DNA of 64,000 nucleotides from an uncultured Anaerolineales bacterium (GTDB lineage Bacteria > Chloroflexota > Anaerolineae > B4-G1 > SLSP01), in contig CAZCTC010000010.1 of the NCBI GenBank assembly GCA_964501335.1, positions 64,001-128,000 of the forward strand, written 5' to 3'. The notes under the pieces are model-generated. The model had not been told where the DNA came from, did not search any database, and saw nothing but the letters and a program-made list of their open reading frames with translations. Of this stretch, positions 6,101-42,533 are shown piece by piece. How positions within the stretch are numbered: the first letter of the stretch is position 1; the number at the start of each line of letters is the position of its first letter. Both the position numbers and the translations under genes were made by a program.

Positions 6101-6123
6101 CCGGCTGCGGGGTTAAGGATAAG

Positions 6124-6162: not shown

Positions 6163-6913
6163 ACCAGCTGAGTGTTTCTCCATCGGCGGGGATGGCAACG
6201 TGGTCGATCAGGCCGGCCCGGGTAAGCTGGTCGGCGAGGGGGCGGCGTTGCAACCGGCAATGGTTGACGGCTTCCATGTGGACGGCGACGATGTGGGCCT
6301 GGGGCGCGGCGCGGCCGACATTGATCACGTCGGCGGCGGTCATGGTGATGGGAGCGCCGATGTTGAATTGGGCGGCGCCGGCGTTGAGGACGATGATGTC
6401 GGGGTGATATTGCTCAAGGACGGCCTGGACGGTGGCGTTCCAGACGGTGTCTCCGGCGATGTAGAGGAGGGGTTCCCGGGGGGGGTTGATGATGAAGCCG
6501 GAGACGGCCCCCATGAGGTTGCCGAGGAGGCCGCGGCCATGTTTTCCGCCCGTGCGGGTGAAGTGGAGACCGTTCACTTCGGCGGAGGTTGCGATGGGCA
6601 AGACGTGGGTGAAGTTTGCTTTTTGGAAGGAGGGCTGATCGGGGGGCTGGCAGATGAGGGGGAGCTGTTTGGGGAGCCGGGCTGCGGCAACGGCATCGAA
6701 ATGATCGAAGTGGGAATGGGTGGCGACGATCATATCGGGATGCAGCAGTTCGTCGATAGGGCAGGGGAGCGGGACCGTCGGGTTGGTGGCGGCGGATGTT
6801 CCAAAGGTCAGGGATTGCAGGGTGTGGGCTTCAGCCAGCAATGGATCGATGAGGATGGATTGGCCGGCCAGTTCGATTTGCAGGGTGGCATGGCGGATCA
6901 GACGTAGTTTCAT
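6161..6913 (-). CDS. MBL-fold metallo-hydrolase
   Basis: The HxHxDH motif is ATHSHFDHFD. The start is placed at the internal Met (MKLRLIRHATL), the typical MBL N-terminus; the annotated ORF extends to 6988. Confidence 0.75.
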   Translation of the reverse strand: MKLRLIRHATLQIELAGQSILIDPLLAEAHTLQSLTFGTSAATNPTVPLPCPIDELLHPDMIVATHSHFDHFDAVAAARLPKQLPLICQPPDQPSFQKANFTHVLPIATSAEVNGLHFTRTGGKHGRGLLGNLMGAVSGFIINPPREPLLYIAGDTVWNATVQAVLEQYHPDIIVLNAGAAQFNIGAPITMTAADVINVGRAAPQAHIVAVHMEAVNHCRLQRRPLADQLTRAGLIDHVAIPADGETLSW

Positions 6914-18294: not shown

Positions 18295-20967
18295 ATGGAT
18301 AAAGAGTGGATTTTGCCTTTGGATGCCGGGGGGGCTCAATTAGAGGCTGTGGGAGGTAAAGGGGCCAATCTGGCCCGGCTGATGGCGGCCGGTTTTTCGG
18401 TTCCAGGTGGTTTTTTGGTTACCACGTCGGCCTATGAAGCCTTTGTTGCGGCCAATGATTTGCGTCGGCGAGTCTCTGTCCTGGCTGAGACAGTTGCCGT
18501 AGACGATCTGGCAGCTCTGGAGGCTGTGTCGGCGGAGATTCGCGCCGGTTTTGCCCGGGGGACGATGCCGCCGGCGTTGGCAGAAAGTTTACAGGATGCT
18601 TATCGTCAGTTGGGCCAGCCGCCTGTAGCCGTGCGTTCTTCGGCGACGGCGGAAGATCTGCCGGATTTTTCTTTTGCCGGACAACAGGATACGTTTCTTA
18701 ATGTGATCGGTGAGGATGCTCTGTTGCGGGCCGTGGTGGATTGTTGGAGCAGTTTGTGGACGGCCCGGGCTATCGGTTATCGCAAACGTAATGCAGTCAG
18801 CACGGGCGGGTTGGCGTTGGGTGTAGTGGTTCAACAGATGGTGAACAGCGAGGTTTCGGGGGTGCTCTTTACGGCCAATCCCCTCACCGGGGATCGGACT
18901 GAAGTGGTGATCGATGCGACCTGGGGATTGGGGGAGGCTTTGGTTTCCGGGCAGGTGGAGCCGGATCATTATGTAGTAGCGGCAGGGACGTTGATTTTGC
19001 AGAAGGCTGTGGGGGCCAAAGCGGTGATGATCCGGCCGGCAGACACCGGGGGCGTGGTTTCATTGGAGGCCGGTCTCTCGCATCAACAGGCGCTGCCCGA
19101 TCCGGTGATTTTGGAACTGGCGCAGTTGGGGCGGAAGATCGCGGTGCTTTACGGCGTGCCGCAGGATGTGGAATGGGCCTGGGCGGAAGGGAAGCTTTTT
19201 GTGCTTCAGGCGCGGCCGATCACTTCTCTTTACCCGCTGCCGGACGGGCTGCCGGAGAATCCGCTGGCTGTGTTGATTTCCTTTGGGGCGGTACAGGGGA
19301 TGTTGGATCCGATGACGCCGTTGGGGCGCCAGTGGATTCAGAGTTGTATTCCAGTCATTGCCCGGCGTTTTGGGATGAAGAAGGATTTGAAGACGCAGAC
19401 CGTATTGGTGGAATCGGCAGAACGGATGTTTATGAATCTCACACCCGTCGCTCATAATAAAGTGGGGCGAAAGCTTATGCGGGCGGCCATGGGGGCGGTC
19501 GAACCGGCGGCGCGGGCCGGATTGGAGTTGTTGTGGGACGATCCTCGATTGGCCCATCCCGGGCCGTTGCGGTTTCGTTCGGTTGGGGCTCTGGTGCGAG
19601 GGATGGGACCGGTATTTGTGCGGGTCATCGGCAATCTGTTACGGCCCGAATCGATGCGGCCGCGGGTAGATAAACGGGTGGAAGCGATGCTCGCTGATTT
19701 TGCCCAACGCAGCGCGGCGGCAGCCTCTCTGGCGGATCGTTTAACTCTTTTTCAGGTGATTTGGGAAAGTATCCCCGGGATTATTTTGGGGGAACTTTTG
19801 CCGGGGATGGTCGCCGGGATGGCGATGTTTGTTGCTTTGATGAAGCTGGCCGAAGCGGTGCCCGGGGGGGATCTGGAGGTCCTGGCGGTGACGCGAGGGA
19901 TGCCGGGAAACGTCACGACGGAGATGGATCTGGCTTTGTGGGTAACCGCGCGACAAATTCAATCTGATCCGGCGGTGAAGGCCTTCTTTTTGCAGACGCC
20001 GGCGGAGCAACTGGCGGCGGATTGGATGGCCGGAACTCTGCCTTCGATGGCTCATTCGGCGATTCAGGCTTTTATGGATCGTTATGGGATGCGCGGGTTG
20101 GCGGAGATCGATCTGGGGCGGCCCCGTTGGCGAGAAGAGCCGGTTCCGGTTTTTCAGTCCTTGCAGAGCTATTTACAGATCACCGATCCGGAGCTGGCGC
20201 CGGATGCCGTTTTCAGCCGGGGAGCCGTGGCCGCGGAAGCGGCTTTGACGTATCTGGTAACCGCATTACGGTCCCGGCCGGGCGGCTGGTTGAAGGCGCG
20301 GCTGGCGCGAGCTGCAGGGCGACGGGTGCGGTTGTTGCTGGGGATTCGTGAAAGTCCCAAGTTTTTTGTCATTCGGCTGATGGGAATGTTGCGGATGGCT
20401 TTGTTGGAAAGCGGTCGCGATCTGGTTTCCCGCGGGATCTTGCAGGCGCCGGACGATCTTTTTTTTCTGGGGTTTGCCGAGTTGCAATCTCTGGCCGACC
20501 ATGAACCAGGAGAATGGAGGGCGCTGGTCGATCAACGGCGCGCGGTTTATCAACGTGAACTGCGGCGGCGGCAGATTCCCCGGGTGTTATTGGGCGATGG
20601 GCGGGCTATCTTTGAAGGGTTGAGTGCGGATGCCGAAGCCGCCGGAGTGGGCGAGCTGGTCGGCAGTCCTGTTTCGCCGGGGGTGGTTGAAGGTGGGGTG
20701 CATGTGGTGTTAGATCCCCGGGGAGTTCAGTTGATCCCCGGTGAAATCCTGGTTTGTCCGGGAACCGATCCTTCCTGGACCCCCCTGTTCCTTTCGGCGG
20801 GAGGACTGGTGATGGAGGTCGGTGGGCTGATGACCCATGGAGCCGTCGTGGCGCGAGAGTACGGCATTCCGGCGGTTGTGGGCGTCCATGATGCGACGAC
20901 GCGGTTGCAAACCGGACAACGGATTCGAGTTGACGGAGCAACCGGGAAAATTGTGATTTTGGCGTGA
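18295..20967 (+). CDS. PEP-utilising phosphotransferase with PpsA / rifampicin-phosphotransferase-like architecture
   Basis: N-terminal PPDK_N ATP-grasp segment (GGKGANLARL...GFSVPGGFLVTT). C-terminal swivel phosphohistidine domain (GGLMTHGAVVAREYGIPAVVGV). The start is placed at the ATG with RBS gaaagg (MDKEW); the ORF could extend to 18250. Confidence 0.8.
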   Translation: MDKEWILPLDAGGAQLEAVGGKGANLARLMAAGFSVPGGFLVTTSAYEAFVAANDLRRRVSVLAETVAVDDLAALEAVSAEIRAGFARGTMPPALAESLQDAYRQLGQPPVAVRSSATAEDLPDFSFAGQQDTFLNVIGEDALLRAVVDCWSSLWTARAIGYRKRNAVSTGGLALGVVVQQMVNSEVSGVLFTANPLTGDRTEVVIDATWGLGEALVSGQVEPDHYVVAAGTLILQKAVGAKAVMIRPADTGGVVSLEAGLSHQQALPDPVILELAQLGRKIAVLYGVPQDVEWAWAEGKLFVLQARPITSLYPLPDGLPENPLAVLISFGAVQGMLDPMTPLGRQWIQSCIPVIARRFGMKKDLKTQTVLVESAERMFMNLTPVAHNKVGRKLMRAAMGAVEPAARAGLELLWDDPRLAHPGPLRFRSVGALVRGMGPVFVRVIGNLLRPESMRPRVDKRVEAMLADFAQRSAAAASLADRLTLFQVIWESIPGIILGELLPGMVAGMAMFVALMKLAEAVPGGDLEVLAVTRGMPGNVTTEMDLALWVTARQIQSDPAVKAFFLQTPAEQLAADWMAGTLPSMAHSAIQAFMDRYGMRGLAEIDLGRPRWREEPVPVFQSLQSYLQITDPELAPDAVFSRGAVAAEAALTYLVTALRSRPGGWLKARLARAAGRRVRLLLGIRESPKFFVIRLMGMLRMALLESGRDLVSRGILQAPDDLFFLGFAELQSLADHEPGEWRALVDQRRAVYQRELRRRQIPRVLLGDGRAIFEGLSADAEAAGVGELVGSPVSPGVVEGGVHVVLDPRGVQLIPGEILVCPGTDPSWTPLFLSAGGLVMEVGGLMTHGAVVAREYGIPAVVGVHDATTRLQTGQRIRVDGATGKIVILA

Positions 20968-21176
20968 ACATTTTGCTGAGTGCTCTCGTTTAACGAATAA
21001 GCCGGACAAAAGGGACCGGAATGGAATTGCTTTTATTGATTAAAACATGGATCACAGCCATCCGGGCGCTCCAGAATCAGATCTCTGTCTGGTTTTTGGA
21101 GCAAATTGCGGTTGGACGGCGATTTTTCTTCAGATATGAAGGCTCAGAGGCCGAACCGGCCACGCCTGATTTGATT

Positions 21177-21716
21177 ATGAGCTTTCAGCAAGGGCATCCC
21201 GAAGCATTTGAGCTGATCTATCAACGATTTAAGAACTATGTCTATCGGGTGGCCTGTTTTTTGGTGCGGGACGATGTGGAAGCTGAGGATGCAGTTCAGG
21301 AGACTTTTCTGGATGTGTTGCATGGATTGCCGCATTATGTACCCAGTGAGAAGGCCGCCTTTGAGACCTGGCTTTATCGGGTTACCATCAATCGTTGTAC
21401 TACCCGATTGCGGCGTAAGGTTTTGCCGTCGACCGATTGGGATGAGATGACGGAACAGATGGAGAATTTACCGACTCCTGATCTGGAAGGCGATCCGGAA
21501 GCGGTTTGTCTGGGCCATGAGGAGACCCTGACGTTGTGGCGGGCCGTCGATACATTGTCGGAGGAGCATCGCGCGGTATTGGTGTTGCGTTATGGACAGG
21601 ATTTGGGGTATGAAGAGATTGCTCAGGTTTTAAATATCAATTCAGGGACGGTGAAATCACGCCTGTTCAATGCTCATCGCAAGTTGCGGTCGGTTTTAGA
21701 GGCCATGAGTGGATAA
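21177..21716 (+). CDS. ECF-family RNA polymerase sigma factor (sigma-70 regions 2 and 4)
   Basis: Region 2 FELIYQRFKNYVYRVACFLVRDDVEAEDAVQETFLDV. Region 4 HTH LSEEHRAVLVLRYGQDLGYEEIAQVLNINSGTVKSRL. The start is placed at internal Met 21177 for a 179-aa product; the ORF is open from 21021. Confidence 0.8.
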   Translation: MSFQQGHPEAFELIYQRFKNYVYRVACFLVRDDVEAEDAVQETFLDVLHGLPHYVPSEKAAFETWLYRVTINRCTTRLRRKVLPSTDWDEMTEQMENLPTPDLEGDPEAVCLGHEETLTLWRAVDTLSEEHRAVLVLRYGQDLGYEEIAQVLNINSGTVKSRLFNAHRKLRSVLEAMSG

Positions 21717-21732
21717 TGGCAGGGGGTGGTGA

Positions 21733-24700
21733 GTGAGTAGAAACCATGTGGAGCAGGAATTGCTGGCCTATCTGGACGGAGCATTGGATGCACGGACCCG
21801 AAGCCGGGTCGAAGCGCATCTGAAGGAATGCCCGACCTGTACGGCTGAGCTGGCGCGGTTGAAGCGGCAACGCCTGATATTGGGGCAGGTTTTCAAGATC
21901 AAATTGGGGGAGAAGCAGTTGCCGGCGGCGGCCGATCGCCGGATTCGGACCCGGCTGCGTCAGGAAGCGGAGCCACGCCGGGAATGGTGGTGGGCCTGGC
22001 GCGGTGGGTTGACGCAGGTGGCCCTGGCTTTTATGGCAGTGGCGATGGTGATCACGGCCTGGCCGTTTCTGTCACCTTCGACCTCTCCTGCCGTTCTTCC
22101 GACTGTTCCGCCGCGGACCGAGGTGATGGGACAGAGCCGGCTGGCGCCGGGAAGCCGGGCGGCGATGCGGATCGTGGTGAGAGAACAATTATCTCCGCAG
22201 CCGGTTTCGGGGGCCGAAATTGAAGTGCGGTTGGGCAAGGTGCCCGGACTGGCGGCGTTGGTCTATCGGGGCCGGACGGATGCGGAAGGCATGGTCCAGG
22301 CGGCCTTTACGGTGCCGGAAGAGCTGGAAGGGGCGGTCAATCTGGTGGTGAAGACCGTGGTGGCCGGGCAAAGTGGAGAGATCGTGCGGCCGATTGTGGT
22401 GGTGCGCAGCGCCCGTCTTTTTTTGAATTCCGACAAACCGGTTTATCGGCCCGGGCAGGAGCTGTTTGTGCGGGCGCTGGCATTGGATGCGATGAACCTT
22501 CGCCCGGTGGTTGGGGGGCAGGTGGCTTTTGATATTTTGGACAGCAAGGGGCGTTCCTTAAATCATCAGGTATTGAGGGCTTCGGATTATGGGGTGGCTG
22601 CCTTTACCTGGAAAGTAGCCGATGATTATGCCGACAAGTCGTTGACTTTAAGAGCGACCATCAGTGATACCGTGTCGGAACGTCAGGTAATGGTAGGGGC
22701 TTATCCGCGGGCAGCTTTTCGGCTGAATGTTGAACCGGGACGGACCTTTTATGCCCCCGGGAATCGGGTGACCGGTACCGTTCAGGCTGATTATTTTTTT
22801 GGAAAGGCAGTGGCGGACGCCATGGTGCGGATTGTCGGGCGGCAGGGGGGGGCGGCTGGCGTCATCATAGCCGATGTCAGCGGGCGTACGGATGCCCTGG
22901 GACGGTTCGATTTTACTTTCAATTTGCCACTGGAAGATAGCTGGCGTGAGTTGGGTGGGCAGCCGGACATTCTCTATCTGACTGTGTCGGCGACCGACAG
23001 CGCCGGTCGGACCGAAGGAGTACGTCGGGAGATGCCGGTTTCCCGGGCGGGTCTTCTGATCCAGGCGGTTCCGGAGCGGGGCAGTTTGAAGCCGGGGGTT
23101 GAGAATATCATCTACATTTCGACGGCTTATCCAGATGGACAACCGGCTGCGACGGAGATGGAAATTATGGTTGGAGATGTGTCTTATCAGGTAGCGACCG
23201 ATTCTTACGGCATGGGGGAATTTCGGCTGAAGCCTTTGACTGAGACGGTGATGCTGGAGATTGTCGCTCATGATGAGCAGGGGCAGACGGGCGCCCGGGT
23301 TTTCAATCTGGCAAGCTTTTATGGATCGAAGAGTGTGTTAGTGCGAACCGATGGAGCGATCTATCGAGTAGGGGATACCCTGCATGTGGAAGCTTTGACG
23401 GCGGGGGAAATTCGTCAACTCTATCTGGATGTGTTGCAGGCCGGGCAGTCGGTGGCTATGCTTTCGGGGTTTGTGGAAGAGGGGCGGGCGGCCTGGGCGA
23501 TCGATTTGGACAGCTCGCTGGCAGGGACTCTGGAACTGCATGTGTATGCGGCGGACGATGAGACCCTGGAGGATAGCCGTTCTGTGGTGGTCGATCCGGC
23601 GAATGAGGTTGCCGTGCAGGTGACGGCGGATCGGGCGGTCTATCGGCCTGGAGAGCAGGCCCATTTACAGTTTCAGACAACTTTGACGGAGTCCGGGAAG
23701 TCCCTGCCGGCGCAGGCTTTGCTGGGAGTGGGTGTTGTTGATGCGTCGGTTTATGCGTTGGAACAGTTGCCGGTGGGCTTTGCCCGCACCTATTTTCTGT
23801 TGGATAAAAAATTATCCAGTGTGCCTCAATTGGGTTTTGCCGTGGATCAGGGTTTGGCGGCCGGGTCGGAAAATAGAGCGGTTCGTCTGGCGCAGAGTCG
23901 CGCTGCTGAGGCGGCCTGGGCCTTGGCCGGCGATTCTCCGATCGGAGAAAGGAGGCTTTATGCATTGTCCGTTTCTTATGACGTGCGTTCATCGGCGCAA
24001 AATCAGAAGTCGCCTTCCGATGGGGTGCGGAGACTGTTGGCAGGAATCCTTCTGATATTGGCGATTTTTCTGTGGGTTGTTGTAATTCAGACCCTGTTCC
24101 GGTTGGAGTTAGTGAGAGCGGCTTTGCCCTGGATGGGGGGGGGGATGGTATTTGCTTTTCTGGTCTCACCGCTGCTCTTCTCGCTTACTTCATGGTTGGT
24201 TAATGGCTTGGTTTCGGTGTTGGGGAACTGGATGTTGTTGGTTTTCCTGATTCCGATGGTGGGCCTGTGGGGATTTTTGTGGCGGCAGGGGTGGCGCCGG
24301 CAGGATGTCAGGTTACAGGAAGCGATGGCCATCGTGGGCGCCTATGGGATTTGTGAGAGTTTGCTGATCGTATTGACCCGTGAAAGCCAGAATTTGGCGG
24401 AATTCGAGACGGTGGTGGCGGTCTTTTCTTTTCTGGTATTGCTGGGAGGCATGCTCTTGCTGGGGGCCAGTTTGTGGTTCGAGGGGCATCGTAAGCCGGC
24501 CGGATGGAGCCTGGCTCTGGTGATCGTGTGGGTGATGCTTTCTTTGGCCTTGCCGTCGATCCCGGCCATTTCTTCCCGATTGACTCAGACATTGGGCGAG
24601 CCGGTGCTTTATGCCGGGCCGTTGGGCTGGTTGAGCGGGTGCGCGGCTCCGATGAGTCCTACTGCGGCTCCGACTACAGAGGCTCCGGCTGTTGAGGAGC

Positions 24701-25323
24701 CGACCGAAGCGGCTACAGAAGAAGCAACGGAAGCGCCGACCGAAGAGGCAACTCAGGAAATTCCTACTGCGGCTCCGACTGCTGCGCCGCCGACTGCTAC
24801 GCCCGTTCCAACGCCGGGAATTGAAGTGCCGATGGAACCTTTCCCGTTGCGGCAGTTTTTCCCGGAGACCCTTTACTGGAATGCAGCAGCTGAGACCGAT
24901 GCTGAAGGGCGATGGGATCTGGATTTGCCGTTGGGGGACAATGTGACGACCTGGCGGGTGACGGCGCTGGCTTCAACTCAAGATGGTGCTTTGGGGGCCG
25001 TAGTTTACGATCTGCCGGTCTCTCAGGATTTCTTTATGGAGCTGAATTTACCTGAAACGGTGCGTAGCGGGGCCGAGGTGACCGGTACAGCTACGTTGCA
25101 CAACTATTCACAGGTCAGTCAGACCGTGCAGGTGCAGTTCGCGCCGGCGGACTGGTATGAGGTGCAGGTTTCTTCCGGGACGGTAACGTTAGGACCGGGG
25201 CAGGTAGTTGCCGTGGACTTTGTGTTGAAAGCCGGGCAGGTTGGGAAGTTCACTCTGTTGGTTAAGGCAAACGGGGAGGGAGTCCAGGATGCTCTGGCCC
25301 GGGAAGTCGTGGTCCATGAGTGA
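21733..25323 (+). CDS. anti-sigma factor (zf-HC2 N-terminus) fused to a very large extracytoplasmic domain, an internal multi-TM block, a Pro/Thr/Glu/Ala-rich linker and a C-terminal beta-rich domain
   Basis: GTG start 17 nt after the sigma gene. N-terminus ELLAYLDGALD...HLKECPTCTAEL is the anti-sigma zinc-finger signature. TM helix at about aa 95. About 8 predicted TM helices at aa 760-950. Linker APTTEAPAVEEPTEAATEEATEAPTEEAT. Confidence 0.75.
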   Translation: MSRNHVEQELLAYLDGALDARTRSRVEAHLKECPTCTAELARLKRQRLILGQVFKIKLGEKQLPAAADRRIRTRLRQEAEPRREWWWAWRGGLTQVALAFMAVAMVITAWPFLSPSTSPAVLPTVPPRTEVMGQSRLAPGSRAAMRIVVREQLSPQPVSGAEIEVRLGKVPGLAALVYRGRTDAEGMVQAAFTVPEELEGAVNLVVKTVVAGQSGEIVRPIVVVRSARLFLNSDKPVYRPGQELFVRALALDAMNLRPVVGGQVAFDILDSKGRSLNHQVLRASDYGVAAFTWKVADDYADKSLTLRATISDTVSERQVMVGAYPRAAFRLNVEPGRTFYAPGNRVTGTVQADYFFGKAVADAMVRIVGRQGGAAGVIIADVSGRTDALGRFDFTFNLPLEDSWRELGGQPDILYLTVSATDSAGRTEGVRREMPVSRAGLLIQAVPERGSLKPGVENIIYISTAYPDGQPAATEMEIMVGDVSYQVATDSYGMGEFRLKPLTETVMLEIVAHDEQGQTGARVFNLASFYGSKSVLVRTDGAIYRVGDTLHVEALTAGEIRQLYLDVLQAGQSVAMLSGFVEEGRAAWAIDLDSSLAGTLELHVYAADDETLEDSRSVVVDPANEVAVQVTADRAVYRPGEQAHLQFQTTLTESGKSLPAQALLGVGVVDASVYALEQLPVGFARTYFLLDKKLSSVPQLGFAVDQGLAAGSENRAVRLAQSRAAEAAWALAGDSPIGERRLYALSVSYDVRSSAQNQKSPSDGVRRLLAGILLILAIFLWVVVIQTLFRLELVRAALPWMGGGMVFAFLVSPLLFSLTSWLVNGLVSVLGNWMLLVFLIPMVGLWGFLWRQGWRRQDVRLQEAMAIVGAYGICESLLIVLTRESQNLAEFETVVAVFSFLVLLGGMLLLGASLWFEGHRKPAGWSLALVIVWVMLSLALPSIPAISSRLTQTLGEPVLYAGPLGWLSGCAAPMSPTAAPTTEAPAVEEPTEAATEEATEAPTEEATQEIPTAAPTAAPPTATPVPTPGIEVPMEPFPLRQFFPETLYWNAAAETDAEGRWDLDLPLGDNVTTWRVTALASTQDGALGAVVYDLPVSQDFFMELNLPETVRSGAEVTGTATLHNYSQVSQTVQVQFAPADWYEVQVSSGTVTLGPGQVVAVDFVLKAGQVGKFTLLVKANGEGVQDALAREVVVHE

Positions 25324-25350
25324 GTGGGGGTATTAAAAAAGGAGATAGGG

Positions 25351-25770
25351 ATGGAACGGAATGAGAAAAAGATTAAACGTCCTTTTTTGCGGAAACGCTG
25401 GGCTTTGATTTCCGGTCTGGCGCTGGCTTTTTCGGCAGCCTGTGCCGTGCCGGTAACCTGTTATACTCCTATGCCGTCAACGATTGAGCCGTCAGCGACG
25501 CCGACCCAAACGCCGACTCCCACGCCTACGCTTTTTTTCGTCTGTTATACGCCGACGCCTTCGCTGCAACCGATTGATACGTTGACGCCAACCTGTTATA
25601 CGGCTACTCCGATAGCGACTCCCACGCCAGTTTTGATTCCGCCGCCCGAGGCGACCTTCACGCCGATTCCGGCCACGCCTACGCCGATGCCGCAGACATT
25701 GGATGAATTGCGGGAGAAGTTGCTGGTCGAGGGGCGGTTTCCGGAGGGTGTGGTTAAGGAATTGAAGTAG
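25351..25770 (+). CDS. secreted Pro/Thr-rich Cys-Tyr-motif peptide with the conserved C-terminal EGRFP motif (precursor-like, type C)
   Basis: RBS ggag 7 nt upstream. Signal-peptide-like N-terminus. Three CYT(P/A) motifs. C-terminus LDELREKLLVEGRFPEGVVKELK. Confidence 0.6.
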   Translation: MERNEKKIKRPFLRKRWALISGLALAFSAACAVPVTCYTPMPSTIEPSATPTQTPTPTPTLFFVCYTPTPSLQPIDTLTPTCYTATPIATPTPVLIPPPEATFTPIPATPTPMPQTLDELREKLLVEGRFPEGVVKELK

Positions 25771-25783
25771 TTGTGGAGGTTAT

Positions 25784-26128
25784 ATGGAACTCGGAAACAG
25801 AAATCGAGGACGGTTGTCGCGCAAGTTGAAATTGTTGGCGGCTTCCGGGATTGCGTTGGGCCTGGCGGCCCGTTGTGCGGCCGAGCCTACTCCTGAAGTG
25901 CTCTGTTATGCTCCGGTTGCGCCGACTCCGACTGAAACGCCCATGGTGATGTGTTATGAACCCACCATGTCGCCCATTGAGGAGACGCCCACGATCACGC
26001 CAACGGCAACGCTTACCGGTTCTCCGGAAATCACCATTACACCAACTTTGGAATCCCGGAGCACTTTAATGGAACAATTATTGACTGAAGGACGTTTTCC
26101 AAAATGTGTGGCGGAGGAATTGAAATAA
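25784..26128 (+). CDS. secreted Cys-Tyr-motif peptide, type A (copy 1)
   Basis: RBS ggagg. N-terminus MELGNRNRGRLSRKLKLLAASGIALGLAA. Motifs LCYAP and MCYEP. C-terminus RSTLMEQLLTEGRFPKCVAEELK. Confidence 0.6.
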   Translation: MELGNRNRGRLSRKLKLLAASGIALGLAARCAAEPTPEVLCYAPVAPTPTETPMVMCYEPTMSPIEETPTITPTATLTGSPEITITPTLESRSTLMEQLLTEGRFPKCVAEELK

Positions 26129-26154
26129 TTAAATTAATCTAAAGGGATTGATGT

Positions 26155-26547
26155 ATGGGCCAGAAAAAGAGAAGGTTATCGCGTAAGGCGATGTTGGTGG
26201 TGGTTTCTGGAATGGCCGTGGGAATGGCGGCAAGTTATAATGCGGGAGTTGCCATGCCGCCGCCCACGCCTACGCCCACTGCCATTTATTTGACCCCGGC
26301 GGCACTTCCGAACGAAAGCACTGTTTTGCCGCGTTTTCATCCACGCGACATAAGCTGTTATATAGTAATTGATGTAACCCCAGAAGAGAGCTGGATCTCG
26401 TCTCCGGATGGAGCTACCGCGACGCCGACTCCCACACCTACTCCGACTTTGATAGGGAGTTCGGGACCGACCTCTCTGGATCTTTTACGGGAGCAGTTGC
26501 TGGCAGAAGGGCGATTTCCGGATGAGGTGGCGAAGGAATTGAAATAG
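26155..26547 (+). CDS. secreted Cys-Tyr-motif peptide, type B (copy 1)
   Basis: N-terminus MGQKKRRLSRKAMLVVVSGMAVGMAAS. Motif SCYIVIDV. C-terminus LDLLREQLLAEGRFPDEVAKELK. Confidence 0.6.
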   Translation: MGQKKRRLSRKAMLVVVSGMAVGMAASYNAGVAMPPPTPTPTAIYLTPAALPNESTVLPRFHPRDISCYIVIDVTPEESWISSPDGATATPTPTPTPTLIGSSGPTSLDLLREQLLAEGRFPDEVAKELK

Positions 26548-26637
26548 CGAAAATCCTTTTCGGGTGATTTGTTTTTAGTGTCCCACAAAGGGATTTTGCC
26601 CGGTAAGAAGCGACGCGCTGGAGGGAGGAAGGGGCAT

Positions 26638-26982
26638 ATGGAAAGCAAAAACAGAAATCGAGGCCGGTTGTCGCGTAAGTTGAAATTGTTGGTGGCTTCC
26701 GGGATTGCGTTAGGGTTGGCGGCGCGCTGTGTGGCTGAGCCTACGCCGGAAGTGACCTGTTATGCAGTGGCGGCGCCGACGCCGACTGAAACGCCGATGG
26801 TGATGTGTTATGAACCCACCATGCCGCCCATGGAGGAGACGCCCACGATCACGCCGACGGCAACGCTTACCGGTTCTCCGGAGATCACCATAACACCAAA
26901 TGTGGAATCCCGGAGCACTTTAATGGAACAATTATTGACTGAAGGACGTTTTCCAGAATGTGTGGCGGAGGAATTGAAGTAA
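26638..26982 (+). CDS. secreted Cys-Tyr-motif peptide, type A (copy 2)
   Basis: Around 90% nucleotide identity to 25784-26128. RBS ggaggaagg. Motifs TCYAV and MCYEP. C-terminus ...EGRFPECVAEELK. Confidence 0.6.
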   Translation: MESKNRNRGRLSRKLKLLVASGIALGLAARCVAEPTPEVTCYAVAAPTPTETPMVMCYEPTMPPMEETPTITPTATLTGSPEITITPNVESRSTLMEQLLTEGRFPECVAEELK

Positions 26983-27008
26983 TTAAATTAATCGAAAAGG
27001 ATTGATGT

Positions 27009-27428
27009 ATGGGCCAGAAAAAGATAAAGTTATCGCGTAAGGCGATGTTGGTGGTGGTTTCCGGAATAGCCGTGGGAATGGCGGCAAGTTATAATGCGGG
27101 AGTTGCTATGCCGTCGCCCGCGTCCATATTCACGCCCACGTCCACGCCAACTCCCTCTTTCGTTCATTTGCTTTCGAACGGAATTGCCGTTTCGTCGCCC
27201 CATCGTCCAATCGGCGTGAGGTGTTATCTTGTAATTGATGTAACTGAGGTAACTCCAGAAGAAAGTGGGATCTGGTATCCTGATGGAGTTTTCGCGACGC
27301 CGACTCCAACGCCGACTCCCACTCCGACTTTGATAGGGAGTTCGGGGCCGACCTCACTGGATCTTCTACGGGAACAGTTGCTGGCGGAAGGGCGTTTCCC
27401 GGATGCGGTGGCGAAGGAGTTGAAGTAA
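27009..27428 (+). CDS. secreted Cys-Tyr-motif peptide, type B (copy 2)
   Basis: Paralogue of 26155-26547. Motif RCYLVIDV. C-terminus LDLLREQLLAEGRFPDAVAKELK. Confidence 0.6.
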   Translation: MGQKKIKLSRKAMLVVVSGIAVGMAASYNAGVAMPSPASIFTPTSTPTPSFVHLLSNGIAVSSPHRPIGVRCYLVIDVTEVTPEESGIWYPDGVFATPTPTPTPTPTLIGSSGPTSLDLLREQLLAEGRFPDAVAKELK

Positions 27429-27433
27429 GAAGC

Positions 27434-27703
27434 ATGATAAAAAAGCGGAGTAACAAAATCTCCGGGGGGCCGCGCCGGAAGCCGGGGGCGGATTTTTTGG
27501 TCCAGATGTTTCAGGAGTTACACGATGCTGAGGTACGTTCTACTCCGGATTTGAGCATCTGTTACGAGATCCAGGCTGTGGAACCTGATCCGGTAACCGG
27601 GGCAGCTCAACCGGAGAAATCCCGGCAGCTTTTGCGAAGCCGGTTGGTCAAAACCAACCGCTTTCCTGCCGGTGTGGAGGGTGAGTTGGGGGAGGAACGA
27701 TGA
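27434..27703 (+). CDS. sixth family member: no signal peptide, degenerate C-terminal motif, translationally coupled to the radical SAM gene
   Basis: 89 aa. Motif SICYEIQAV is related to the type B SCYIVIDV. C-terminus LLRSRLVKTNRFPAGVEGELGE. Its stop overlaps the rSAM start (ATGA). Confidence 0.5.
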   Translation: MIKKRSNKISGGPRRKPGADFLVQMFQELHDAEVRSTPDLSICYEIQAVEPDPVTGAAQPEKSRQLLRSRLVKTNRFPAGVEGELGEER

Positions 27704-28815
27704 AAAGAAAAGAAGGAAAGCGGACCTGGCTTTCGCGGTGGCGGCAGGTGCTGGCTCAGGTAGAGATGCGGCAGGCGCAAAAGAGAGAGCCGGAACGGGC
27801 TTCTTATTTTATTCTGGAGTTGACGGCGCGTTGTAACCAGGATTGCCGGTATTGTTATAATGTCTGGAAGGCGCGCGAGGGGATGGTCCAACGGGAGATG
27901 ACGACCGAAGAGTGGTGCACGTTGATCGGTCGGTTACAGGACGAGATGGGCTGTCGGCAGGTGACTTTTTCGGGCGGGGAGCCGCTGCTGCGAGAGGATT
28001 TCCGTGAGATCCTGGCCTTCTGTCACCGGCGAGGGTTGGAGAGTATTGTGATTAGCAATGGCCGGTATCTGGACCAGGAGATGCTGGAATTCTGTCTGGC
28101 CCACGGGGTGAAGATGTTTGAAGTGACGCTGCTGGGTTCCAATGCGGCGACCCATGACGGATTGACGCGGGTGCCGGGCAGTTGGGAGCGGGCTCTTTCC
28201 GCGATGACCCGGCTTTACAAGGCCGGGGCTACCTGGTGCGGTGTTTTTGTGGCGACGAGTGAAAATATCGGGCAGGTGCGGGAGACGGTGGAGATGATGA
28301 TTGCGCTGGGGGCGAAGGTCATTATGTTTAACCGGTTCAATCCTGGCGGAGAGGGGGCCCGGCATCGCGATTTGATGCCGGCACCGGATGATGTGCAGAA
28401 GGCGTTGCGGGTTGTGGATGAGCTGGCTGTGGCGTATAATTTCCCTGCAACGGCTTCGGTGCCGGTGATGCCCTGTCTGGTCGATCTACACGGCTTTCAA
28501 CGGGTGCAATTTGGGTTTTGTGCGGCGGGGCGGGCGGGTTCTTATCCCACCATCGGGCCGGATGGCCGGGTGCGCCCTTGCAATCACAGTGCGACCATTC
28601 TGGGGGATTTTCATCAACAGTCGATGCAGGAGATGTTGGAGGGGCCTGCGTTGCGGGCTTTTACGGCCGTGGTGCCTGAGGTTTGCCGGCCCTGTCCGGG
28701 GCTGGATCAATGCCGGGCGGGGTGCAGGGCGGCTGCAGAGGTCTGTTTTGGTTCATTGGAAGAGCCGGAACCCTGGTTGAAGGCTAATTTAGAGCGATTG
28801 CCGCCTATGGTTTAG
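27700..28815 (+). CDS. radical SAM enzyme with a C-terminal SPASM-type auxiliary Fe-S cluster domain (peptide/protein maturase type)
   Basis: CX3CX2C motif CNQDCRYC near the N-terminus. SAM-binding GGEPLL. C-terminal Cys-rich block CAAGRAG...CNHS...CRPCPGLDQCRAGCRAAA. 371 aa. Confidence 0.85.
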   Translation: MKRKEGKRTWLSRWRQVLAQVEMRQAQKREPERASYFILELTARCNQDCRYCYNVWKAREGMVQREMTTEEWCTLIGRLQDEMGCRQVTFSGGEPLLREDFREILAFCHRRGLESIVISNGRYLDQEMLEFCLAHGVKMFEVTLLGSNAATHDGLTRVPGSWERALSAMTRLYKAGATWCGVFVATSENIGQVRETVEMMIALGAKVIMFNRFNPGGEGARHRDLMPAPDDVQKALRVVDELAVAYNFPATASVPVMPCLVDLHGFQRVQFGFCAAGRAGSYPTIGPDGRVRPCNHSATILGDFHQQSMQEMLEGPALRAFTAVVPEVCRPCPGLDQCRAGCRAAAEVCFGSLEEPEPWLKANLERLPPMV

Positions 28816-28825
28816 GCACATTGAG

Positions 28826-29150
28826 GGATGAAAAAGGAATTTCACCACAGAGGCGCAGAGATCACAGAGAAGAAGAAGAGAGGAGATTTTCTGAAACGTA
28901 AAAAGTAATGATCTGTGGGTTTGGTGCAACGGTGAAGGGAGGGGGTAAGCGGATGTTGCCGGGATGCTTTTGGAAAAAGCCATGTTTTTGCGCGCATTCT
29001 GATGCGCGCAAAAACATAAATAAAAAACTCTCTCTGCCTATCCAGCGCGGCGTATTGTAAGGGGAGAGTGCCATTTACGGGTGAGGAGGATTTTTCCAGA
29101 CAGGTGTAACGCACTCGGATCTTGCAATGATGGGCGGTTTGCCTTCAGAT
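28826..29150. repeat. dispersed intergenic repeat element, copy B (left arm, hairpin 28982-29017, right arm)
   Basis: Left arm ggatgaaaaaggaatttcaccacagaggcgcagagatcacagagaagaagaagagaggagattttctgaa matches 6995-7062. Hairpin atgtttttgcgcgc-attctgat-gcgcgcaaaaacat. Right arm aaataaaaaactctctctgcctatccagcgcgg. Confidence 0.8.
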
Positions 29151-29238
29151 TGGTCCGTTTGAATCGATGGTTCTATGGATAGAAAGTGCGTCGCACCTTA
29201 AGGTGGGTTATTTTCAGGACAGAATTTGAGGAGGCGTT

Positions 29239-30093
29239 ATGTTGTTAACCGATTTTATCCATCGTCAGGCTGTTCCTGAGCCATGGGCGGAGGGGGAGAA
29301 GATCCCCTGGAACGATCCGGAATTCAGCCGGCGGATGTTATTGGAGCATCTTTCGCAGGCCCATGATGCTGCCAGCCGGCGTTTCGAGCGGATTGAGCGG
29401 CATGTGGCCTGGATCCAAAGGGTATTGTTGAAGGGGCAATCGGCGCGGATTTTGGATCTGGGATGCGGTCCGGGATTTTATTCTAACCGACTGGCGCGGC
29501 TGGGAAATCAATGTGTGGGGATCGATTTTTCTCCGGCTTCGGTCGAATATGCGCGAGAGCTGGCCGGGGCCGATCAGCTGGATTGTACTTTTATAGAAGG
29601 GGATATTCGGAAGGTGGCGTATGGTGGGGACTATGATTTGGCCATGTTGATTTATGGCGAGTTCAACGTTTTCAAGCCGGCGGAGGCGGAATCCATTTTG
29701 CACAAGGCGTGGGCGGCGTTGAAGCCGGGAGGAATTTTATTGTTGGAACCTTCGACCTATGCCTGTATCCAGGAATTGGGGCAGCGGCCTCCGGAATGGT
29801 ACAGTGCCGATGGTGGGTTATTTTCCGAGCGGCCGCATTTATGCTTGATGGAAAATTTCTGGGATGAAGAGTGCAACGTGACGACGGAGCGATATTGGAT
29901 TGTAGATGCGGAGACGGGGAGTGTGACCCGGCATGCTTCGAGTTCCCAGGCGTACAGCGATGCCCAATTTCAGGCGCTGCTGGAGCGCTGTGGTTTTGAG
30001 GGGGTGACCTTTTATCCTTCTTTAATGGGGGAGGTCGATCCTGAGCAACGGCATCTTATGGCGGTGATGGGATGGAAAGGACAATCTGAATGA
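29239..30093 (+). CDS. class I SAM-dependent methyltransferase
   Basis: Motif I ILDLGCGPGFYS. Acidic motif II IDFS. Motif LKPGGILLLE. Confidence 0.8.
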   Translation: MLLTDFIHRQAVPEPWAEGEKIPWNDPEFSRRMLLEHLSQAHDAASRRFERIERHVAWIQRVLLKGQSARILDLGCGPGFYSNRLARLGNQCVGIDFSPASVEYARELAGADQLDCTFIEGDIRKVAYGGDYDLAMLIYGEFNVFKPAEAESILHKAWAALKPGGILLLEPSTYACIQELGQRPPEWYSADGGLFSERPHLCLMENFWDEECNVTTERYWIVDAETGSVTRHASSSQAYSDAQFQALLERCGFEGVTFYPSLMGEVDPEQRHLMAVMGWKGQSE

Positions 30094-32901: not shown

Positions 32902-34515
32902 GTGATGAACGCTTTTACACGGATGTTAAGTGGAGGAGTGATTTTAGGAACGCTGTTCCTGACGGCCTGTGGTACCCCTGTTCCTACCGGGGCTCCGACT
33001 CAAGAAATGCGGCTTGAGTCAGCAGCTACGGAAGAAGCCACGGAGGCGCCTTATGATTATGCGCCCGCAGCGACTGCGGCGCCCGCGTTTGACGAGGCGC
33101 TTGGGGGACCTTCGACCGGAGGATCGGCCGAACCGAACGATCAACCTTACGGCGATGTTTTCTTTGAGAACTATGGGGTCAATCCGGTCATCGACACGGA
33201 AGATGATCATTTTTCGACCTTTGCCGTGGATGTGGACACGGCTTCTTACACGGTAATGCGCCGCTATCTGGCCGACGGCAATCTGCCGGACAAAGACTCG
33301 GTGCGGGTCGAGGAATACATCAATTTCTTCGATCAGGAATATACGCCCCCAACGGAAGGCGCTTTTGCCATCCATCTGGAAGGATCGCCGGCGCCTTACG
33401 GTGAGAACAATTACTATCTGGTGCGGGTGGGGTTGAAGGGTTATGAAGTTCCGGCTGAAGAGCGGAAGCCGGTGGTACTCACCTTTGTGATCGATGTTTC
33501 CGGGTCGATGGGAGAAGGAAACCGGCTGGCATTGGTTAAGCAGGCTTTGCAACTGCTGGTGCAGAACCTTCGCCCTACGGATAAAGTTGCCGTCGTGGTG
33601 TACGGCGATGTGGCGCATGTGGTGCTGGAACATACCCCCGTTTCGGAATCCAACACCATTTTGCAGGCGATCAATCGTTTGCAGACCGAAGGGGCTACCA
33701 ATGCTGAGGATGGGCTGAAATTGGGTTATCAACTTGCAGATCAGGCTTTTGAAGATGGTGCCATCAACCGGGTGATCCTCTGCTCGGATGGGGTAGCCAA
33801 TGTAGGAAATACGGGGCCCGATTCTATTTTGCAGCAGATTCGCCGCTATGCCGACAATGGTATTTTTATGACGACCGTGGGCTTTGGGATGGGGAATTAC
33901 AACGATGTGCTGATGGAGCAACTGGCCGATGACGGCGACGGTTTTTACGCTTATGTGGACGATATCAAAGAGGCCGAGCGGGTCTTTGTGAACGATTTGA
34001 CTTCATCGTTACAGGTGATCGCCAAGGATGCCAAAATCCAGGTCGATTTCAATCCCCAGGTGGTGGCTCGTTATCGGCTGATCGGTTATGAGAATCGGGA
34101 TGTGGCCGATGAAGATTTCCGCAACGACAATGTGGATGCGGGTGAGATCGGGGTCGGGCACAGCGTCACGGCGCTTTATGAGGTGAAATTCCAGCGGGAG
34201 ATCGATCCTCAGGCGACGGCGATGACCGTGGCGGTGCGGTATGCCGATCCCGACAGCGGGAATGTGACAGAGATTTCCCGTTCGATCGCTCAGGCCGATC
34301 TGGCAACTGCTTTTGAGGCGACCTCGCCGCGGTTCCAGTTGGATGCGGTGGCGGCTGAATATGCGGAGATTTTGCGGGAGAGTTACTGGGCGCGCGGTTC
34401 AACGTTAGAAGCCCTGGTTTCTCAAGCGCGGCGGATTGCCGATGCTTTGCCGCAAGATGCAGAGGTGCGGGAATTTGCGGATCTGGTAGCCCGAGCCGCT
34501 CAGTTGCGGAGATAA
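32902..34515 (+). CDS. vWA-domain lipoprotein (YfbK-like architecture)
   Basis: Lipobox LTACG. MIDAS motif VLTFVIDVSGSMGEG, followed by CSDGVANVG. 537 aa. Confidence 0.8.
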   Translation: MMNAFTRMLSGGVILGTLFLTACGTPVPTGAPTQEMRLESAATEEATEAPYDYAPAATAAPAFDEALGGPSTGGSAEPNDQPYGDVFFENYGVNPVIDTEDDHFSTFAVDVDTASYTVMRRYLADGNLPDKDSVRVEEYINFFDQEYTPPTEGAFAIHLEGSPAPYGENNYYLVRVGLKGYEVPAEERKPVVLTFVIDVSGSMGEGNRLALVKQALQLLVQNLRPTDKVAVVVYGDVAHVVLEHTPVSESNTILQAINRLQTEGATNAEDGLKLGYQLADQAFEDGAINRVILCSDGVANVGNTGPDSILQQIRRYADNGIFMTTVGFGMGNYNDVLMEQLADDGDGFYAYVDDIKEAERVFVNDLTSSLQVIAKDAKIQVDFNPQVVARYRLIGYENRDVADEDFRNDNVDAGEIGVGHSVTALYEVKFQREIDPQATAMTVAVRYADPDSGNVTEISRSIAQADLATAFEATSPRFQLDAVAAEYAEILRESYWARGSTLEALVSQARRIADALPQDAEVREFADLVARAAQLRR

Positions 34516-41585: not shown

Positions 41586-42533
41586 TTGTTTCAACATATT
41601 TTAGTTCCTTTGGACGGATCGGTGTTAGCAGAATGTGTTTTGCCTCACGTTTTGACGATGGCGCGCACTTTCAACAGTCGGATTACCCTCTTAAAAGTTT
41701 TACAGCAGGAAGCTTCGTTTGAACAAATTGACCCTGTTTTCTGGCATATTGCCAAGACCGAAGCTCAGGCTTATCTGGCTCAATGGGCGGTAAAATTGCA
41801 GACTTTGGGCATAAGTGTTGAGACTCAGGTGCTGGATGGGCAACCTGCTGAGCGGGTGTTGGAATTTGCGCAACTTAATGATGTGGATCTCATTCTCTTA
41901 AGCAGCCATGGTCAGAGTGGATTGAGCGAATGGAATGTCAGTAGCGTGGTGCAGAAAATTATTATGCGGGCGAAATCTTCGATCATGATTATCCGGGCTT
42001 ACCAGCCGCTCCATTCGCAATGGGAAGCGCTGGTTTATCATCGATTTTTATTACCGTTAGATTGCTCGGCCCGGGCTGAGTGTGTCCTGCCGGCCGCGAT
42101 TATGTTGGCACGCTCTCACCATGTTCCGGTTTTGTTGGCCCATGTGGTTCAGCCTTTTGAATTACTTTGTCAGGATAGGGTTTCTTCTGAGGAACTGGAG
42201 GTGATTTCGAGAATGAATGAACGTAATCGTCTAGAGGCGGAACAATATTTTCAGCAAATTATCGCGCGTTATGAGGCTGATTTTAAACCGAACGTTTTGG
42301 TAAATTCCAGTGTTGGAGCTGCTTTGCATGATTTAGTAGAGCAGGAAAAGGTGGATTTGGTAATTCTAAGCGCGCATGGGCGCTCCGGGAATGTTCGTTG
42401 GCCCTATGGAGGGGTAGTGGTTAATTTTATTGCTTATGGTCATACCCCTTTGTTGATTGTTCAAGATTTACCTGTAGATCGAGGACCGATTTCTTTGGTA
42501 GATGTTTCTATGCAGGTACAAAAAGGCCATTGA
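41586..42533 (+). CDS. universal stress protein with tandem UspA domains
   Basis: Segments HILVPLDGS...LILLSSHGQSGLSE and LPLDCS...LVILSAHGRSG. Probable TTG start. Confidence 0.8.
   Translation: MFQHILVPLDGSVLAECVLPHVLTMARTFNSRITLLKVLQQEASFEQIDPVFWHIAKTEAQAYLAQWAVKLQTLGISVETQVLDGQPAERVLEFAQLNDVDLILLSSHGQSGLSEWNVSSVVQKIIMRAKSSIMIIRAYQPLHSQWEALVYHRFLLPLDCSARAECVLPAAIMLARSHHVPVLLAHVVQPFELLCQDRVSSEELEVISRMNERNRLEAEQYFQQIIARYEADFKPNVLVNSSVGAALHDLVEQEKVDLVILSAHGRSGNVRWPYGGVVVNFIAYGHTPLLIVQDLPVDRGPISLVDVSMQVQKGH

Follow-up and report, generated by a model that had tools for sequence, protein, structure and literature searches.

A six-gene array of Cys-Tyr peptides, including a tandemly duplicated two-gene unit, directly before a radical SAM/SPASM enzyme gene in an Anaerolineales bacterium

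We analyzed a stretch of 64,000 nucleotides of DNA from an uncultured Anaerolineales bacterium (positions 64,001 to 128,000 of contig CAZCTC010000010.1), which is called the window here, and all positions are counted from its first letter. The subject of this report is an array of six small genes in which a two-gene unit is duplicated in tandem at 25784-27428. The six genes are consecutive open reading frames (ORFs) on the + strand in the order C, A1, B1, A2, B2, F, and the peptides they encode (89-139 aa) have one shared architecture. The array lies in one operon, behind a gene pair for an extracytoplasmic function (ECF) sigma factor and an anti-sigma protein and directly before the gene of a radical S-adenosylmethionine (SAM)/SPASM enzyme. 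The initial annotation of the window had described the duplicated unit; it had overlooked the larger array of six genes, the predicted export signals and the length of the peptides, and the lack of a dedicated protease or transporter nearby.

The array begins with peptide C (139 aa; 25351..25770), whose gene has a GGAG ribosome-binding site 8 nt upstream. Peptide C contains a lipobox-like FSAAC (a regular-expression match), three Cys-Tyr sites, and the C-terminal LLVEGRFPEGVVKELK, and it scored 41 bits with a hidden Markov model (HMM) of the C-terminal motif. Unit 1 consists of peptide A1 (114 aa; 25784..26128), with two Cys-Tyr sites and a motif HMM score of 53 bits, and peptide B1 (130 aa; 26155..26547), with one Cys-Tyr site, a hydrophobic N-terminus without a lipobox Cys, and a score of 47 bits. 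Unit 2 consists of peptide A2 (114 aa; 26638..26982), which is 89% identical to A1 at the amino acid level, and peptide B2 (139 aa; 27009..27428), which is 69% identical to B1 and differs from it by four in-frame indels. The last peptide, F (89 aa; 27434..27703), has one Cys-Tyr, no hydrophobic N-terminal segment, and a divergent C-terminal motif, LVKTNRFPAGVEGEL (36.6 bits). Its gene overlaps by 4 nt with the start of the gene of the radical SAM/SPASM enzyme (371 aa; 27700..28815; +), the presumed maturase, which matched Pfam Radical_SAM, SPASM, and Fer4_12. The motif HMM found no copy of the C-terminal motif in the 64-kb window beyond these six.

The operon starts with the gene of an ECF-type sigma-70 factor (21021..21716; +), which matched Pfam Sigma70_r2 and Sigma70_r4_2 and scored 96.9 bits with NCBIfam TIGR02937 (cutoff 42.9). 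The next gene (21733..25323; +) encodes a protein of 1196 aa in which an anti-sigma domain (zf-HC2) is fused to an alpha-2-macroglobulin (A2M)-like ectodomain (Pfam zf-HC2, MG2, A2M_BRD, A2M), and a 27-nt gap separates its end from the gene of peptide C. Homologues of this protein are encoded at the same position in two related loci (1213 aa in L012 and 1167 aa in L014), and an ECF sigma gene also lies upstream in both. Downstream of the enzyme gene, a hairpin with an 18-bp stem followed by a T-run (28980..29019; strand not assigned) was the strongest terminator-like site in 20800-29300 and is probably the end of the operon, as judged from its sequence. Promoter-like and terminator-like sites were not enriched in that interval.

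Then the two copies of the unit were aligned with each other. In a global alignment, 25784-26547 (764 nt) and 26638-27428 (791 nt) were collinear, and 664 positions agreed, 100 were mismatched, and 27 columns held gaps. The identity was thus 86.9% without gaps and 83.9% with gaps, which is lower than the roughly 90% given in the initial annotation. BLASTN aligned 25782-26546 with 26636-27427 at 83.6% over 792 columns (E = 0), and a repeat search gave a 300-nt block of 89% identity at a spacing of 854. The flanks of the two copies were unrelated, since their identity was 49% in the 100 nt upstream and 41% in the 90 nt downstream, which is the random level. The repeat is therefore limited to the region from about 2 nt before the start codon of A to the stop codon of B. 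A loss of collinearity or an identity below about 70% had been named beforehand as evidence against a duplication; the copies were found to be collinear and 84-87% identical.

The period of about 854 bp proposed earlier holds at both start codons (25784 to 26638, and 26155 to 27009). At the stop codons it increases to 881 nt, since the in-frame indels of B2 add a net +27 nt. The matching of the intergenic sequences was also borne out: the A-B spacers are identical at 24 of 26 positions, and the intergenic and peptide strings that had been quoted were correct. The identity along the unit was very uneven (93-98% over 25934-26263 and 53-70% over 26264-26422), and all four duplicated ORFs are intact. 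The two units are separated by a 90-nt spacer (26548-26637; + strand), which is unique, is not repeated, and holds the ribosome-binding site of A2. We also considered this spacer as a structured RNA or attenuator and dropped the idea, because its predicted fold was not better than that of shuffled sequences (z = -0.19).

The contig is assembled from a metagenome, and the repeat might in principle be a chimeric join of strain variants. Since the copies are 13-16% diverged and both sets of ORFs are intact, in spite of four in-frame indels and under purifying selection, such an artefact is excluded for practical purposes. In addition, the unique spacer and the flanks are coherent, and a relative (L099) likewise has a multi-gene array. 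The junction of B2, F, and the enzyme gene, including the F gene itself, was reproduced exactly in an independent assembly (L100, run SRR6476076), which is identical to window 27200-28868 at 100%. The segment 25784-27428 thus arose by a lineage-specific tandem duplication, in which the two-gene unit A-B became A1-B1-A2-B2.

In order to describe the divergence of the copies, we calculated the synonymous (dS) and non-synonymous (dN) distances by the method of Nei and Gojobori, in segments of 24-61 codons. For the whole A genes, dS was 0.25, dN 0.065, and dN/dS 0.26, and for the whole B genes these values were 0.40, 0.117, and 0.29. The B core, which also carries the four in-frame indels, gave a dS of 0.54, a dN of 0.23, and a dN/dS of 0.42. 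In the C-terminal 32 codons of B, dS was 0.50, dN only 0.014, and dN/dS 0.03. The values of dN/dS lay at 0.03-0.44 in every segment. Because they are below 1 everywhere, both copies are kept by selection; that is, purifying selection holds both copies, and it holds the tail very strongly. The ongoing diversification suggested in the initial annotation is thus not a case of positive selection, which we rejected because no segment reached a dN/dS of 0.45. The clustering of changes in the cores, likewise suggested there, was seen in the B peptides (dN 0.23 in the core versus 0.014 in the C-terminal motif). It was not seen in the A peptides, in which dN was 0.074 in the core versus 0.087 in the signal region, so that the core is not enriched.

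The duplication had also been called recent. This description does not suit the whole unit, since dS ranged from 0.07 to 0.68 along it, with 0.25 for A1/A2, 0.40 for B1/B2, and 0.68 for the 3' half of B; it was 0.07-0.25 through gene A, the A-B spacer, and the start of B, and 0.5-0.7 over the remainder of B. The values were low at the 3' end of A (0.07) and in the signal region of B (0.09), which together with the A-B spacer form a 330-nt tract of 93-98% identity. This tract (25934-26263 versus 26788-27117), which adjoins the B core at 53-70%, resembles the product of gene conversion. The closest relative found, L099, is a contig of 1.5 kb with genes in the order B-like, X, A-like, Y. The dS of 0.25 between A1 and A2, compared with 0.63-0.74 between the A genes and the A-like gene of L099, indicates that the A copies are younger than the species split. 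For the 3' halves of B, dS was 0.68 between B1 and B2, compared with values against L099 of 0.73 (B1 and the B-like gene) and 1.18. From these sequence distances, the 3' halves of B appear to be about as old as the split from the L099 lineage.

These values can be considered in two ways. The unit may have been duplicated once and recently, with fast divergence of the B core, or it may have been duplicated at about the time when the lineage parted from that of the nearest relative sampled, and gene conversion may later have homogenised the 5' two-thirds (A, the A-B spacer, and the signal region of B). We give the second possibility a chance slightly short of one half. It is favored by the abrupt change from the 330-nt tract of 93-98% identity to the neighboring tract of 53-70%, and by the proportions of synonymous differences (pS), which in the signal, core, and C-terminal segments were 0.31, 0.21, and 0.07 for A and 0.09, 0.39, and 0.36 for B (chi-square on the pS counts, p ~0.02). 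It is favored also by the C-terminal half of B, which is as diverged between the copies (0.68) as from the B-like gene of L099 (0.73), which is not the case for the A copies. On the other hand, the segments are short (24-61 codons) and have large dS errors, the alignment of the indel-rich B core is uncertain, and L099 is one partial contig with another gene order, so that the orthology of its B copy is insecure. Taken comprehensively, the mosaic is explained by an older and partly homogenised duplication no less well than by one recent event, with the odds about even.

The comparison of copy numbers that had been suggested gave six peptides in the window, at least four in L099 in a different order, and one or two in the other loci, and the array of the window is the largest seen. 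In one related locus (L095:6717-7925), the frame of the peptide holds a second, degraded tail motif upstream, PTPEARRLLQERWPAEGRFPQTVAWQLRD. This motif is apparently the remnant of an earlier copy that was lost or fused, and hence evidence of gene death in such arrays. The varying array size and this remnant indicate that the family evolves by birth and death. In the course that we propose, the duplication would have contributed to raising the number of substrates from one or two, as in most relatives, to six. The B core would then have drifted by substitutions and in-frame indels while selection held the Cys-Tyr sites and above all the tail, and the 5' two-thirds of the unit would probably have been re-homogenised by gene conversion.

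We next describe the family to which the six peptides belong. A profile of the six matched 41 clusters, of which every named one is a 'hypothetical protein' of Chloroflexi. The family is rare, with only 59 clusters at E<=1e-3 when 1.84e9 representatives were scanned exhaustively by HMMER. No model of Pfam or NCBIfam matched the six peptides at E<=0.1 apart from noise. Residues were counted in 50 distinct members. In these, 131 of the 144 Tyr residues and 131 of the 181 Cys residues stand in C-Y dipeptides, and nearly all of the remaining Cys occupy the lipobox position near residue 31. This near-exclusive pairing of Cys and Tyr is the signature of a site and not an effect of composition. The members (precursors of 89-183 aa) begin with a basic and then a hydrophobic segment, and a lipobox-like xxAC, defined by a PROSITE-style pattern, is found near residue 31 in 31 of the 50, with PSAC in seven more. 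A twin-arginine RRQLLK signal is present in 7/50, and the model TIGR01409 for twin-arginine translocation (Tat) signals recognized two members (P0036 and P0040) at its curated cutoff. The core is Pro/Thr-rich and has one to five T-P-x-[VP]-[TML]-C-Y-[TE]-[PA] sites per member, and the members end with the motif EARxLLxxLLAEGRFPxDVARxL. Two further matches, P0200 and P0203, were discarded as repeat-driven false positives, and the contig of P0201 is too short to show its gene context.

The peptides of the window have one to three invariant Cys-Tyr in a Pro/Thr-rich disordered core and a tail of the form LLxxLLxEGRFPxxVxxEL. In the AlphaFold2 model of A1, an N-terminal helix (8-30) is followed by the disordered core and a C-terminal helix-turn-helix (89-113), whose residues, with a predicted local distance difference test (pLDDT) score of 81-85, are the only confident ones. 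An N-terminal export signal or membrane anchor was predicted in five of the six peptides, the exception being F. As to the lipobox, C matches it, A1 and A2 have Arg at -1, the Cys is missing in B1 and B2, and F lacks the hydrophobic segment altogether. The tail of F reads NRFPAGVEGEL, and a signal-less copy of this kind was not seen in the other loci; F might act in the cytoplasm as a decoy or regulator, might be a chaperone-like copy, or might be a gene in decay. A1 and A2 have an extra Cys within the tail, Cys108 (26105-26107 and 26959-26961; GRFPKCV and GRFPECV), which is lacking in their closest L099 homologue (GRFPEGV) and in almost all other members.

The enzyme encoded after the array scored 78.9 bits with Pfam Radical_SAM and 31.5 bits with SPASM. 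The CxxxCxxC lies at residues 45-52, and the SPASM pattern Cx14Gx4C followed by Cx2Cx5Cx3C...C is complete and invariant in 26 orthologues. The best sequence match in PDB was PqqE (6c8v, E 4e-25), and the NCBIfam model of MftC also scored below its cutoff. StsB scored 88 bits against a cutoff of 625, and no NCBIfam model of a thioether maturase came near its cutoff. A PqqD domain, that is, a RiPP (a peptide that is made by the ribosome and modified after translation) recognition element (RRE; PF05402), was not matched in the enzyme at E<=0.1, and no PqqD gene was listed in the examined neighborhoods. The AlphaFold2 model of the enzyme (pLDDT 80) had SkfB, SuiB, BlsE, PqqE, and the anaerobic sulfatase-maturating enzyme (anSME) as its nearest folds. 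SkfB was the top match (6efn, E 1.7e-16), and anSME (4k39) gave a template modeling (TM) score of 0.63. Except for BlsE, these fold neighbors are peptide- or protein-modifying SPASM or twitch enzymes of several chemistries.

About 50 clusters are 62-70% identical to the enzyme, and beyond them the identity falls to about 45%. A scan of a genome collection with the single enzyme sequence gave only distant radical-SAM proteins of 27-38% identity. A metagenome scan with the orthologue alignment gave mostly generic radical-SAM motifs. It also brought up six loci of a sister clade and a single genuine orthologue fragment (L015), and the ORF upstream in this fragment does not encode a peptide of the family.

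In order to clarify whether the peptide and the enzyme belong together, we compared the orthologous loci with gene context. A peptide bearing the motif ends 3-4 nt before the orthologous enzyme gene in 7/7 other loci with upstream sequence (L012, L013, L014, L095, L096, L097, and L098). With the 4-nt overlap in the window, a peptide gene abuts the enzyme gene in 8/8 orthologous loci. The pair of sigma and anti-sigma-A2M genes is present in 3/8 loci, and the flanking genes vary among loci. Because the flanking genes differ and the sigma pair is found in only three, the conserved core consists of the peptide and the enzyme. No leader peptidase, ABC exporter, or immunity gene was conserved in the eight neighborhoods, and in the window no dedicated protease or transporter gene was found within about 8 kb.

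A DUF456 protein and a 69-aa membrane protein are encoded upstream in 5/8 loci. They were ruled out as obligatory partners, since the window does not have this pair (tblastn negative). The genes lie at L012:1-717, L013:7660-8172 (DUF456 alone), L095:5855-6581, L096:6494-7223, and L098:92-778, and the small membrane protein has 69-70 aa, two helices, and the form MxRRxxxRR...APRKGT...ALAIAGGLLIL. In one orthologous locus, the peptide genes are preceded at about 1.2 kb by a TatA/B/E gene (L096:5949-6128), and this proximity may be coincidental. A protein with vWF_A, VWA, and YfbK_C domains is encoded 4 kb downstream of the operon (32902-34515; +); the same architecture occurs within the cluster of L012 (L012:5327-6949), between the anti-sigma-A2M gene and the peptides, and the protein may be a loosely associated component. 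The window also has a very long ORF of 2867 aa (42502-51105; +).

The coupling extends to the sister clade, whose enzymes are about 40% identical. In 5/5 distinct loci of this clade, a predicted exported protein with an [AT]-[TL]-C-Y-x-[PM] site is encoded directly upstream of the enzyme. In the reverse direction, P0247 was looked up on its 845-kb contig, where its gene overlaps a radical-SAM gene by 4 nt, so that a Cys-Tyr protein adjoins the enzyme in 6/6 sister-clade loci. The sister proteins (48 clusters, Anaerolineae) have 220-440 aa, carry a Tat signal or membrane anchor, and are mostly helical, and their partner enzymes have about 340-350 aa and no N-terminal helix. They are encoded at L016:3096-3806, L018:~555-1250, L019:3172-4176, L020:1693-3015, L021:4795-5793 and 5897-6835, and L103:5001-5711. 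In these proteins, 15-25 residues after each Cys-Tyr, there is a helix such as RLPLLEKLAAAGKVxPxVLxKVL, which is loosely like the EGRFP tail. Four proteins (P0202, P0207, P0210, and P0213) merge both architectures; P0202 and P0210, for example, have N-terminal Cys-Tyr repeats and a helical domain. The enzymes partnered with EGRFP peptides have an extra N-terminal helix of about 26 residues, which is absent in the sister clade, and the median position of CxxxCxxC is accordingly 44 in the former and 18 in the latter. This correlation between the N-terminal helix and the EGRFP tail suggests a possible docking place of the tail.

From these findings we propose the following mechanism. The cytoplasmic enzyme would bind the C-terminal hairpin of the peptide as a 'follower' recognition element, and would act on each Cys-Tyr site by 5'-deoxyadenosyl radical chemistry with two auxiliary Fe-S clusters. 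The likeliest product would be a Cys-derived thioether or another cross-link, or an oxidized Cys. The modified protein would then be exported to the cell surface by the general Sec, lipoprotein, or Tat route, without a dedicated leader protease or transporter. Peptide F, which keeps just a Cys-Tyr and the tail and has no hydrophobic N-terminus, fits a follower role of the tail. A Cys-derived thioether or cross-link is the commonest outcome for SPASM enzymes that act on Cys peptides. Because only Cys and Tyr are invariant, a product of the adjacent Cys and Tyr, an oxidation of Cys, and a Tyr-directed chemistry are all possible. The initial annotation had likened the locus to multi-precursor RiPP loci, and it does look like such a locus for peptide modification, in that several precursors stand before a radical SAM/SPASM gene and this pairing is kept in relatives. 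On the sequence evidence, the enzyme probably modifies the peptides. We assign a probability of roughly 0.6 to the whole explanation, that is, a duplicated array whose products undergo follower-docked radical-SAM modification at Cys-Tyr and general export.

Several points weigh against this explanation. The proposed chemistry is read from the enzyme superfamily and the invariant Cys-Tyr, and the fold neighbors in the structural comparison span thioether, C-C cross-link, and formylglycine chemistries, so that several types of reaction are possible. No NCBIfam family reached its cutoff with the enzyme, the best being PqqE (TIGR02109) with 114.7 bits against 381. The A and B peptides deviate from the lipobox of the family, and their export route, as judged from sequence, is uncertain. 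The C-terminal motif could just as well serve the mature protein as a functional domain. It resembles the helix of the sister proteins weakly, since hmmsearch was negative at E<=1 and hhalign gave a probability of 22% (P 9e-4), and we keep a homology of the two as no more than a lead. Within 5 kb of the gene of a distant acidic protein with Cys-Tyr repeats (P0209, E 1.5e-5), there is no radical-SAM gene, and the orthologous loci inspected with context represent 8 of about 50 enzyme clusters.

We also weighed three other readings of the locus, which we consider improbable to different degrees. The peptides might be secreted proteins or lipoproteins of an ordinary Pro/Thr-rich kind, which belong to the ECF regulon and are not acted on by the enzyme; their adjacency would then reflect only shared regulation. 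The export signals and Pro/Thr-rich linkers, the lack of an RRE, protease, or transporter in the examined neighborhoods, and P0209 would agree with this. However, the gaps or overlaps of 3-4 nt recur in 8/8 orthologous and 6/6 sister-clade loci despite different flanks, the sigma/anti-sigma pair is found in only 3/8 loci, and Cys and Tyr are almost always paired, as is typical of a modification site. We therefore regard this reading as unlikely.

Still less likely is that the locus makes a classical secreted bioactive RiPP, for example an antimicrobial, with a cleaved leader and a core under diversifying selection. The several precursors beside a radical SAM/SPASM gene and the hypervariable, indel-bearing B core would agree with this. 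The classical leader-cleaved type does not fit, because every segment has a dN/dS below 1, the neighborhoods share no conserved peptidase, ABC exporter, or immunity gene, the precursors are long (89-183 aa), the export signals are general ones, and the conserved element is C-terminal. The peptides might instead serve as scaffolds for a small cofactor or metabolite derived from Cys-Tyr, by the logic of pyrroloquinoline quinone (PQQ) or mycofactocin, the repeated sites and gene copies raising the yield. PqqE is indeed the best sequence match (115 bits; PDB 6c8v), MftC scores too, both of these act on Tyr, and several Cys-Tyr per peptide would suit a multi-core scaffold. Nevertheless, the scores are far under the family cutoffs, no PqqB-, PqqC-, PqqD-, or MftB-F-like genes or peptidases are nearby, and export signals make little sense for a cytoplasmic scaffold, so that we consider this the least probable of the three.

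The proposed system can be compared with known ones. Radical SAM/SPASM enzymes form thioethers in sactipeptides and ranthipeptides, such as SkfA/SkfB, SCIFF/CteB, and freyrasin PapA/PapB with its six repeated Cys sites. The present locus resembles these in having a SPASM radical-SAM gene beside short Cys-bearing precursors, a Cys motif that is repeated within one precursor, and SkfB as the top fold match. It differs from them in that there is no RRE or PqqD, general export signals take the place of a cleaved leader, and the recognition-like element is C-terminal. It also differs in that Tyr is invariant beside each Cys, no acceptor residue is conserved elsewhere, and a dedicated protease or exporter is absent. 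The resemblance to PqqE/PqqA/PqqD and MftC/MftA lies in the enzyme, whose closest sequence is PqqE, and in the action of these known enzymes on Tyr of a small peptide. Unlike in those systems, the PqqE score here is 115 bits compared with 381, and there is no PqqD or MftB chaperone, no PqqA-like gene, and no downstream tailoring gene. The site is Cys-Tyr instead of Glu-x3-Tyr or a C-terminal Val-Tyr, and the substrates are predicted to be exported.

A Cys of export-bound proteins is modified before their translocation by anSME, a SPASM enzyme of about 370 aa that lacks an RRE. Our enzyme is likewise an RRE-less SPASM enzyme of about 370 aa, with 4k39 among its fold matches. In contrast to the substrates of anSME, the peptides have no C/S-x-P/A-x-R motif (their sites are C-Y-[TE]-[PA], without Arg at +4), no neighboring gene has a sulfatase domain, and the sequence similarity is limited to the SPASM region. 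A further counterpart of the array is the sister family of Anaerolineae, which has the same Cys-Tyr context, enzyme family, gene order, and coupling; there, however, the partners are larger, helical, not Pro/Thr-rich, and without an EGRFP motif detectable by hmmsearch, and the enzyme has no N-terminal helix.

A similar export logic is known for bufferins and lipidated ChrH-type peptides, whose precursors with Sec signals or lipoboxes are modified at Cys in the cytoplasm by an MNIO (an oxidative enzyme that depends on multinuclear non-heme iron) without a signal peptide and then take the general export route (PMC11626156, PMC13056109). Bufferin operons are under ECF sigma/anti-sigma control (PMC11626156), and the use of a follower peptide or a leader-independent mode has been predicted for such systems in the paper on lipo-RiPPs (PMC13056109). 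The present locus has in common with them the ECF sigma/anti-sigma pair, and it may also share the signal-bearing Cys precursors and the logic of general export. It differs from them in that the enzyme is a radical SAM/SPASM protein, no MNIO (DUF692) is encoded in the operon or in the related loci, the precursor family is unrelated, and the host belongs to Chloroflexi. To our knowledge, general export signals have been documented for MNIO-modified peptides and not for radical-SAM-modified ones. Our literature search for a system combining radical SAM, Cys-Tyr, Chloroflexi, and Tat or lipoprotein signals found nothing specific. The locus appears to work like a radical-SAM RiPP or protein-maturation system, yet it has no RRE, leader protease, or exporter, and no curated enzyme family fits it.

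Taking these points together, we can sketch a more detailed picture, which we offer tentatively, as something rather less probable than its alternatives combined. The peptides would be an undescribed class of radical SAM/SPASM substrates, namely exported proteins that are lipid-anchored or routed by Tat and that carry a new Cys-Tyr modification, either an adjacent cross-link or a redox-active or metal-binding group derived from Cys and Tyr. The tail would dock on the N-terminal helix of the RRE-less enzyme, and the six-gene array, including the signal-less F, would tune the dosage and variety of surface-displayed modified peptides under the ECF sigma factor.

Taken alone, the duplication is nothing unusual, one case of birth and death within a small gene family. 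It is of value because it points to a compact and tractable system of one enzyme and short substrates, which neither a Pfam or NCBIfam model nor any paper that we found describes. With its clean Cys-Tyr signature, its RRE-independent and apparently C-terminal recognition, and its general export signals, the system is a candidate for new radical-SAM peptide chemistry. The series of paralogues, with A1 and A2 at 89% identity, B1 and B2 at 69% with indels, and F without a signal, is a natural panel of substrates for what the enzyme needs.

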